From positions 1 to 32,064 of IMG/VR virus record IMGVR_UViG_3300037184_000101: a stretch of DNA of 32,064 bases. One strand, given 5' to 3'. The DNA comes from a virus. Shown here one piece after another: positions 24,013-24,184 of the stretch. The first letter of the stretch is position 1. The number at the start of each line of letters is the position of its first letter. Both the position numbers and the translations under genes were made by a program. The notes under the pieces are model-generated. The model was not told the origin of the DNA. It worked only from the letters and a program-made list of their open reading frames with translations, and did not search any database.

Positions 24013-24184
24013 ATAATACCTTGAGTGAGGCGTCTGCACTGAAAGCTTGGTCAATGTGGATTCCACAGACTTCACGTTTCATGCCATTCGCAGCCTGTTA
24101 CGTCTCGTGTCGTCCGAGGTTAAATCCATCCTCGCCGTAGTCCGAAACTGCCTCACTTAAATGGGTTCGTTACTCAAGGTAAAT
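24013..24184 (-). ncRNA. candidate structured spacer RNA between tRNA-Val and tRNA-Ser(TGA) (termini base-pair)
   Basis: 24019-24031 (ccttgagtgaggc) is complementary to gcctcac (24150-24156) plus ctcaagg (24173-24179), with an internal bulge. Non-coding. Confidence 0.3.

Follow-up and report, generated by a model that had tools for sequence, protein, structure and literature searches.

We propose that the spacer between two transfer RNA (tRNA) genes of an uncultured phage contains the gene for a structured non-coding RNA of a kind not described before. The DNA analysed is IMG/VR record IMGVR_UViG_3300037184_000101 from position 1 to 32,064 (the window), and the 172-nt spacer at 24013–24184 separates tRNA-Ser(UGA) (24276–24185) from tRNA-Val(UAC) (24012–23939), both called by ARAGORN on the minus strand. 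The element occupies 24019–24179 of that strand, and it is likely that it specifies a ~161-nt RNA which, as part of a huge-phage tRNA array, would be co-transcribed with its neighbours and released by tRNA processing. We regard it as a genuine, narrowly distributed and previously undescribed family of structured RNA, predicted from sequence comparison and homologous to no known RNA with which it was compared. The upstream neighbour, tRNA-Ser(UGA) (24185–24276), shares its direction of transcription, and tRNA-Val(UAC) (23939–24012) lies downstream in all lineages in which the 3' flank was read, although in L010 and L016 (L numbers designate related loci) this tRNA was identified by eye only, with no ARAGORN call. 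Both linkers are AU-rich: AUUUA (24180–24184) is directly 3' of the encoded CCA of tRNA-Ser(UGA), and UAUUAU (24013–24018) precedes position +1 of tRNA-Val(UAC), where every lineage has an AU-rich linker of 4–9 nt.

The original prediction held that the termini of this spacer base-pair in a helix interrupted by a 16-nt bulge, and the coordinates proved exact. On the plus strand 24019–24031 reads ccttgagtgaggc, 24150–24156 gcctcac and 24173–24179 ctcaagg, so that ccttgag/ctcaagg forms 7 bp (P1) and tgaggc/gcctca 6 bp (P2), together a 13-bp stack; G24025 had been assigned to both arms. The bulge is likewise borne out, 24157–24172 being unpaired (17 nt, 24156–24172, in the comparative model described below). 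The terminal duplex, taken as the first against the last 35 nt of the RNA strand, has a duplex energy of -20.3 kcal/mol compared with -11.7 ± 3.7 in 1000 dinucleotide shuffles, and these random controls give an equally good terminal helix in 1.8% of cases (0.6% on the plus strand). For the spacer as a whole, z-scores of the minimum free energy are -2.9 to -3.1. Taken alone, the terminal pairing is suggestive, that is, moderately unusual and not decisive, and it says little because almost any independently folding RNA has a closing helix. The locus was first seen as a generic spacer defined by such a helix; what we find instead is a 161-nt conserved RNA with eight helices, two tertiary pairings among them, and long invariant unpaired stretches.

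Comparison with sister phages provides the main evidence. Metagenomic contigs were recovered by anchoring on a neighbouring 111-aa open reading frame (ORF) and on an 87-aa ORF taken from a relative, and homologues of the element, 75–86% identical over ~161 nt, occupy the same Ser(UGA)–Val(UAC) junction in six further lineages of uncultured related phages. The carriers are L002–L007 (86% over the 161-nt core), L008/L009 (78%), L010, L014, L016 (partial) and L018/L019 (81%), and in all cases with readable flanks the order is a tRNA-Ser(UGA)-type gene, the element, the linker and tRNA-Val(UAC). When the window is compared with L002, identity is 86% for the element but just 66–69% for the flanking tRNAs, which there makes the "spacer" the best-conserved part of the neighbourhood; it is more conserved than the flanking tRNAs in two of three comparisons. 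L018 differs in the opposite sense, its tRNA-Val being identical and its element 81% identical, which shows mosaicism. A calibrated covariance model (R1) scores full-length copies at 149–197 bits and finds exactly one copy per genome.

Searches beyond these phages did not find the element. Neither megablast of 2.5 kb, blastn of the spacer nor tblastn with the two small proteins adjoining the element gave a match among the 50,697 deposited phage genomes of INPHARED. Exact and degenerate DNA patterns taken from the conserved core gave no matches or chance matches in IMG/VR, a single match in JGI metagenome contigs (L011, in GC-rich coding sequence) and seven in GTDB genomes, all rejected by the covariance model. 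Looser two-block patterns returned more than 120 plus 16 matches in IMG/VR, of which the model kept eight weak partial ones, all protein-coding. The pattern ACTACGGC...GGACGACA was considered as a relative and rejected: it encodes '(K)DYG..GDG.TDDT..IQ', which we take to be a motif of beta-helix tail proteins, and the L122/L129/L142 group differs there by synonymous changes only. Scanning IMG/VR with an alignment of the ORF87 family returned two loci, both without the element.

The secondary structure was derived comparatively from nine aligned sequences (alignment A3), in which invariant blocks alternate with blocks that change in coordination. Element position n corresponds to window coordinate 24185 - n, and the element runs from the 5' strand of P1 to its 3' strand (positions 6–166), as delimited by conservation, model R1 and covariation. 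The fold is predicted to be a three-way junction closed by the 13-bp P1–P2 stack, with P3–P4 and P5a–P5–P6 as its arms. In P1, the 5' strand CCUUGAG (positions 6–12; 24173–24179) forms 7 bp with CUCAAGG (160–166; 24019–24025), and here evolution upholds the terminal helix independently: three pairs have changed on both sides elsewhere, with U-A becoming C-G in L010/L016 and G-C becoming A-U in L018, along with wobble changes such as A-U to G-U in L018, giving UCCUGAG/CUCAGGG in L010 and CCUUGGA/UUCAAGG in L018. The bulge between P1 and P2, UAACGAAnCCAUUUAAG (13–29; 24156–24172), is near-invariant in six lineages. P2 pairs UGAGGC (30–35; 24150–24155) with GCCUCA (154–159; 24026–24031), as seen in the alignment, and stacks on P1 through the continuous 3' strand; five of its six pairs are invariant and the sixth is U-A, U-G or U-U.

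The first arm begins with P3, in which GUUUCG (37–42; 24143–24148) and CGAGAC (78–83; 24102–24107) are paired in all sequences, and in L008, L010 and L014 three consecutive pairs flip from UUU/AGA to AGA/UCU (UUUCG/CGAGA to AGACG/CGUCU). The rest of the arm (24108–24142), defined by alignment and covariation, comprises the P3/P4 internal loop, with near-invariant strands GACUACGG (24135–24142) and GACGACA (24108–24114), and the P4 hairpin (51–55/66–70; 24130–24134 with 24115–24119), where three of the four counted pairs show double changes (GAG/CUC to AGC/GCU). Its loop, L4 (24120–24129), contains GGAUUU (58–63; 24122–24127). The junction strand J3/5, GUAACAGG (84–91; 24094–24101), is a mostly conserved unpaired stretch and leads into the second arm (24034–24093), which is supported by covariation. 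P5a (92–95/148–151; 24090–24093 with 24034–24037) is invariant except for a C-G to U-G change, and P5 (104–108/141–145; 24077–24081 with 24040–24044) has double changes in four of five pairs, UGAAA/UUUCA giving way to GACC/GGUC, GAAC/GUUC and UGGGU/GCUCA. The P6 hairpin (about 118–122/126–130; 24055–24067) covaries as read from the alignment, with CGGUAG/CUACCG, CAGUAG/CUACUG and CGGCAA/UUGUCG, and its loop presents GAAUCC (122–127; 24058–24063).

Two further pairings are tertiary. The first pseudoknot (PK1, 5 bp) joins CCAUU of the P1/P2 bulge (21–25; 24160–24164) to AAUGG of the P5a/P5 internal loop (97–101; 24084–24088), and would tie these two parts together; in L002/L003 it reads CCAGU/ACUGG. 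The second (PK2, 6 bp) is a kissing contact between L4 and L6, GGAUUU/GAAUCC, which changes to GGACUA/UAGUCC and to GGACUU/AAGUCC, and which on this comparative evidence is predicted to clamp the P3–P4 and P5a–P5–P6 arms in parallel. Between the helices, long unpaired stretches at the junction and in the P3/P4 internal loop are invariant or near-invariant: UAACGAA, ACUACGGC, GGACGACACG (invariant in nine of nine alignment rows), AACAGG, UGCGA and GUGCAGAC. The nested part of the comparative structure has an energy of -38.9 kcal/mol, or -49.1 when completed. A single-sequence minimum-energy fold, a long irregular hairpin, was dropped because it contradicts the covariation in P3, P4 and P5.

Over the nine sequences the 42 counted pairs are 93.8% canonical, compared with 83.1 ± 1.2% after column shuffling (0 of 500 shuffles reach the observed value) and with 30–43% when one partner is slid by one to three columns. 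Changes on both sides occur in 15 pairs, against 0–7 in the slid controls, and PK1 and PK2 by themselves are 94.8% paired (28–52% slid) with three compensatory pairs against none. RNAalifold recovers P3, P4 and P5 unaided. Thirteen cells of the alignment hold G-U pairs that would read as A-C mismatches on the opposite strand, which implies an RNA read on the tRNA strand. Together these patterns indicate that the element is selected at the RNA level and on the strand of its tRNA neighbours.

The same observations bear on whether the locus might be the remnant of a mobile DNA, similar to a miniature inverted-repeat transposable element, whose terminal inverted repeats merely resemble an RNA helix. 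Its 13-nt inverted termini, its patchy presence at one junction and the homing-endonuclease-like genes across the array would suit such an origin. However, there is one copy per genome, always at the same site, no target-site duplication is seen in the flanks (AUUUA compared with UAUUAU), and covariation of internal helices and tertiary contacts, with strand-specific G-U pairs, is unlike selection on DNA; we consider this origin very remote. An equally remote alternative is a degenerate or very unusual tRNA, a tRNA-like gene or a small protein gene. P1 has the 7 bp of an acceptor stem, is followed by UA as at tRNA positions 8–9 and stacks on a second helix, and some odd tRNAs of the clade were missed by ARAGORN. 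Nevertheless neither ARAGORN nor the Rfam tRNA model finds a match in 24013–24184, and there is no T-loop (no UUCGA-type loop), anticodon arm or CCA, the 3' tail being UAUUAU. With regard to a protein, no frame is open across the homologues: all six contain stops in most of them, and the indels are not multiples of three, so a small coding ORF was rejected.

In L010 a gene caller placed a 216-aa "protein" (L010:1879–2529), with weak helix-turn-helix matches, that begins within the element and continues through tRNA-Val-like sequence; its 5' part is probably an artefact of gene calling and serves as a warning for annotation.

Known RNA families were searched with Rfam 15, covering tRNA, tmRNA, RNase P, 6S, SRP, 5S, Y RNA, riboswitches, self-cleaving ribozymes, GOLLD, ROOL, retron RNAs and others, and no family matches within 24013–24184 at gathering scores or at E <= 10. 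The L010 copy gave no match at E <= 10 either. A PreQ1-III hit to the L002 copy was discounted (E = 0.86 and 15 bits, the gathering score being 63; absent from the other copies tested). A retron msr-msd RNA was considered in view of the terminal repeats and rejected, as no reverse transcriptase domain occurs in 30 Pfam-scanned ORFs of the window and no retron RNA family matches. Resemblances sought by eye to RNase P CR-I/CR-V and P4, to words of 5S rRNA and 4.5S RNA, to a K-turn or loop E in the internal loop and to a GUA "specifier" for tRNA-Val were not conserved or not topologically consistent, and Rfam supports none of them.

Five arrangements of the Ser(UGA)–Val(UAC) junction are seen among these phages. 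It is empty in L001 and L012/13. The element is alone there (cassette C) in the window, L014 and L018, and in L002, L008 and L010 it is preceded by a 65-nt hairpin (F). L020 has instead an unrelated cassette of 122 nt (D), and L017 and L021 combine D with a cassette of 114 nt (E). Cassette D (L020:2359–2480; L017:1517–1638; L021:1825–1946) is 93% identical between L020 and L017, and E lies at L017:1403–1516 and L021:1711–1824. Their 7-bp closing helices are GUGACGU/GCGUCAC and GGCAACC/GGUUGCU, between AAUUU/AAAU linkers, and their minimum-free-energy z-scores are weak (-0.9 to -1.6 and +0.5). Hairpin F (L002:2171–2235; L010:1789–1852; ~65 nt immediately 5' of the element in L008), which the window lacks, separates the element from the CCA of tRNA-Ser(UGA), and the outer helix of this hairpin covaries from CGGGGC/GCCCCG to GGGGUU/AACCCC; the L002 and L010 copies have no Rfam match. 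Homology of cassette D to the element, suggested by shared CGAA..CCAU..AAGUGA words, was not supported by nhmmer or the covariance model.

Every one of these cassettes has a terminal helix of 6–7 bp and AU-rich linkers around it, and a recurrent "closed cassette" design is real in this phage clade. To this extent the suggestion in the original prediction of a recurrent structural solution, as opposed to a duplicated element, stands, although the examples are those of the sister phages and not the two other spacers of the window, designated A and B, from which it had been drawn. These are presumed to be 14438–14637 and 30762–30941, the other two long ORF-free inter-tRNA spacers. They have, as was said, no sequence similarity to the element, and the covariance model finds no second copy in the window. 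Their proposed likeness to it in architecture is not supported, the terminal duplexes falling within chance (p ~0.09 and 0.11): spacer A has a terminal helix of ~12 bp and an overall minimum-free-energy z-score of only -1.2, and spacer B (z = -2.4) has a minimum-energy fold without a terminal helix. No homologues of either were found among the fetched loci. Spacer B is absent from L018, where tRNA-Leu(CAG) and tRNA-Leu(UAG) are 9 nt apart.

This shared design also favours an alternative, in line with the recurrent structural solution of the original prediction, in which the element is a passive processing spacer whose paired termini merely bring together the 3' end of tRNA-Ser and the 5' end of tRNA-Val, or insulate the two tRNAs. 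The terminal helix of spacer A would fit, and so would dispensability, L001 having just 4 nt between the two tRNAs. For such a role, however, a closing helix would suffice, yet six further helices covary, including the two long-range tertiary contacts, unpaired stretches of 8–13 nt are invariant or near-invariant, and the interior is conserved as much as the termini. We therefore regard a passive spacer as improbable.

A cis-acting leader, the fold of which would govern transcription, RNase P cleavage or the level of tRNA-Val(UAC), is suggested by the constant position 4–9 nt upstream of that tRNA in all lineages read, and by a three-way junction, kissing loops and closing P1 that recall ligand-binding aptamers. 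Aptamers of the purine-riboswitch type have a closing helix, two parallel arms clamped by a distal loop–loop contact, and a conserved junction. The element shares this topology, a resemblance of architecture only, but is twice the size, adds the bulge-to-internal-loop pseudoknot and a conserved internal loop, and lies between tRNA genes. Neither a terminator, an antiterminator nor any other expression platform was found, the riboswitch families of Rfam give no match, and inspection by eye showed no conserved complementarity to the tRNA. Moreover, sister phages have tRNA-Val(UAC) without the element or behind unrelated cassettes, and the tRNA acceptor sequence changes between lineages while the loops of the element stay invariant. 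A leader thus seems hardly likely.

Several points nevertheless weigh against a distinct RNA gene. The element is known from just seven lineages, with full-length copies in six and a partial one in the seventh, and there are fewer independent events than cells counted, since the same two clades account for the split at several of the covarying positions. PK1 is supported by a single compensatory event, and in L014 the 5' part is divergent, P1 being drawable only as UAAUCC/GGAAUA, which includes an A-A mismatch. Sister phages can dispense with the element, their junction being empty or filled with other cassettes, and its position always directly 5' of tRNA-Val(UAC) is compatible with a role in cis. 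Finally, its high identity beside diverged tRNAs could in part reflect recent recombination instead of stronger constraint, as the L018 case suggests.

Notwithstanding these points we favour a discrete RNA gene, and a plausible route of biogenesis can be outlined. A sigma-70-like candidate promoter, TTGACA-17-TATATT with TG, was located by consensus scan at 24509–24537 on the minus strand, upstream of ORF77, tRNA-Ser, the element, tRNA-Val and tRNA-Ser(GCU), and no terminator-like site was found by scanning 23400–25100. The likely transcript accordingly runs from ORF77 through tRNA-Ser(UGA), the element, tRNA-Val(UAC) and tRNA-Ser(GCU) to ORF111 and onward. Transcription from 24537–24509 would then produce a polycistronic tRNA precursor, from which the element may be released by the tRNA-processing machinery of the host. 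RNase P is not confined to tRNA precursors, 4.5S RNA and T4 species I RNA being further substrates. Here its cut at +1 of tRNA-Val would set the 3' side of the element, and by analogy it may also cut at the acceptor-like 7-bp P1. The 5' side would be set by endonucleolytic cuts or trimming in the AU-rich linker that follows the CCA, and the closed P1–P2 stack could shield both ends to leave a stable trans-acting RNA.

The sequences that follow the tRNAs of the window are relevant here. The CCA is encoded in 17 of the 19 other tRNAs, and in 10 of 19 window tRNAs it is followed directly by AUUU (for example 24180–24184, 23934–23938 and 14634–14637), most others having UUUU, AUCU, UUCU or AUGU. 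This run looks like a shared 3'-processing or linker signal. After several tRNAs the sequence AUUUAUG also provides the start codon of the next ORF.

As to function, a compact fold and invariant loops speak for a specific partner or activity over a passive spacer, and our best, though tentative, guess is that the loops may present a binding platform or decoy to some protein, of host or phage origin, that belongs to tRNA or translation metabolism. A bolder and unlikely view is that the element represents the first of a new functional class of RNA peculiar to huge phages, either a ribozyme or ribonucleoprotein core acting on tRNAs or translation, or an oligomer formed, as in ROOL and GOLLD, through contacts between molecules, here GGAUUU/GAAUCC pairing, in arrays that would be made of exchangeable RNA cassettes with tRNA-like ends (C, D, E, F and perhaps A and B). 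If the cassettes are indeed to be read in this way, an acceptor-like 7-bp closing helix with a linker of the CCA-AUUU type would be their common ticket into host tRNA processing.

The window is part of a large tailed phage encoding baseplate wedge and gp25 proteins and PhoH, and its nearest sequenced relatives, at ~37–41% amino acid identity, are Microcystis phage Mel-JY01 and the uncultured "huge phage" genomes LR756508 (484 kb), LR756500 (462 kb) and LR756501/3 (735 kb). An 850-aa protein at 27745–30297 (minus strand) matches the major vault protein shoulder domain (E = 7.6e-19), the vault repeat and SPFH/Band-7, and among deposited phages has relatives (~40% identity) only in the 462–735-kb huge phages LR756500/1/3. 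From 14.3 kb on there is a dispersed minus-strand array of 18–19 tRNA genes, interspersed with small ORFs and homing-endonuclease-like genes, and all 18 tRNAs called by ARAGORN in the window share the orientation of the element. HNH, endonuclease-I-like, PD-(D/E)XK and HNH/resolvase-like genes lie at 25051–25824 (+), 26362–27195 (+), 31304–31717 (-) and 18261–19067 (-), two of the four thus being on the strand opposite the tRNAs. By analogy with SegB in T4, these nuclease-like genes could drive mosaic exchange of tRNAs and RNA cassettes between sister phages. Other genes of the array (16649–17110, 17621–18100 and 23074–23553, minus strand) are cytidylyltransferase-like, a P-loop kinase (APS-kinase/zeta-toxin-like) and dual-specificity-phosphatase-like; the phosphatase family (PTP-NADK/Tc-R-P) is found again beside tRNAs in L002, L008, L018, L020 and L032, and the three may represent an RNA-end repair or modification set.

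The tRNA predictors do not always agree on these phages. Rfam reports a borderline tRNA (29 bits) at 25830–25909 (minus strand) where ARAGORN makes no call, and conversely does not report the tRNA-Ser(UGA) called by ARAGORN, while at L001:3716–3890 two tRNA-like genes (one Ser-UGA-like, the other Val-UAC-like with a GGCAGAA T-loop) were missed by ARAGORN; the clade seems to carry non-canonical tRNAs. A further spacer, the 100 nt between tRNA-Val(AAC) and tRNA-Val(CAC) (22623–22722, minus strand), is kept at 92% in L017 and ~78% in L002, L010 and L008; it contains a 28-codon ATG ORF and lacks a terminal helix.

Huge phages carry dozens of tRNAs, and the other content of their arrays is largely unannotated. 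In the present case an "intergenic spacer" appears to be a conserved RNA with a fold as elaborate as that of a riboswitch or small ribozyme and absent from Rfam, at a tRNA–tRNA junction that hosts differing structured RNA cassettes across sister phages. The coordinates, alignment, covariance model and structure with its two tertiary contacts make it a concrete candidate for experiment.

Among known systems, bacterial Y RNAs (YrlA) have a long stem, formed by the 5' and 3' ends and broken by a conserved bulge, together with a complex second domain. The element resembles them in its end stem with conserved bulge but is without the tRNA-like T-arm/D-arm module and has no match to the Rfam YrlA model, and no Ro/TROVE protein was found among 30 scanned ORFs of the 32-kb window. 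GOLLD and ROOL are structured RNAs of phages and prophages with multiple pseudoknots that are often found beside tRNA islands, and contacts once drawn as intramolecular proved to build multimers (PMC12286853). In kind they are, along with the T4 species I and II RNAs, the nearest to the element, but they differ in size (~580 to more than 800 nt compared with 161 nt), and their Rfam models do not match it.

A catalytic RNA, self-cleaving or acting in trans, that matures phage tRNA ends is suggested by the compact pseudoknotted fold with invariant unpaired nucleotides directly between two tRNAs, and tRNA-associated ribozymes have a precedent in phages: the theta ribozymes, minimal relatives of the hepatitis delta virus (HDV) ribozyme, adjoin phage tRNA genes and act in tRNA end formation (PMC10879173). 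Theta ribozymes, however, lie within ~5 nt of the tRNA and have the HDV double pseudoknot with a catalytic C in J4/2, whereas the element is about three times larger, its helix order (A B C D D' B' C' A') differs from the nested HDV-like arrangement, and no Rfam ribozyme family, HDV-like ones included, matches at E <= 10. It begins 5 nt from the CCA of tRNA-Ser in the window and ~70 nt from it in L002, L008 and L010, and with such a variable separation self-cleavage at its own 5' end cannot define the 3' end of tRNA-Ser. We consider a ribozyme of this kind very improbable.

The closest parallel to the RNA gene proposed here is found in phage T4, whose tRNA-cluster transcript is a precursor of eight tRNAs together with the small stable RNAs of species I and II (PMC2330249). 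In the T4 annotation species I (rnaC, 139 nt) and species II (rnaD, 119 nt) lie within the tRNA cluster on the tRNA strand, and like the element they have no terminator of their own between the genes. There is no homology in sequence or structure: model R1, run with filters off over T4 69000–74000, gave noise only (best overlap with rnaC/rnaD 1.2–1.7 bits), rnaC has a tRNA-like T arm, CCGGGUUCGAAUCCCGG, which the element does not, and the three-way junction with two tertiary pairings is unlike either T4 RNA. Notwithstanding these differences, species I and II are its closest analogues in position and, by analogy, probably also in biogenesis, and the element may inform the 50-year-old question of what purpose non-tRNA RNAs such as these serve in phage tRNA clusters.

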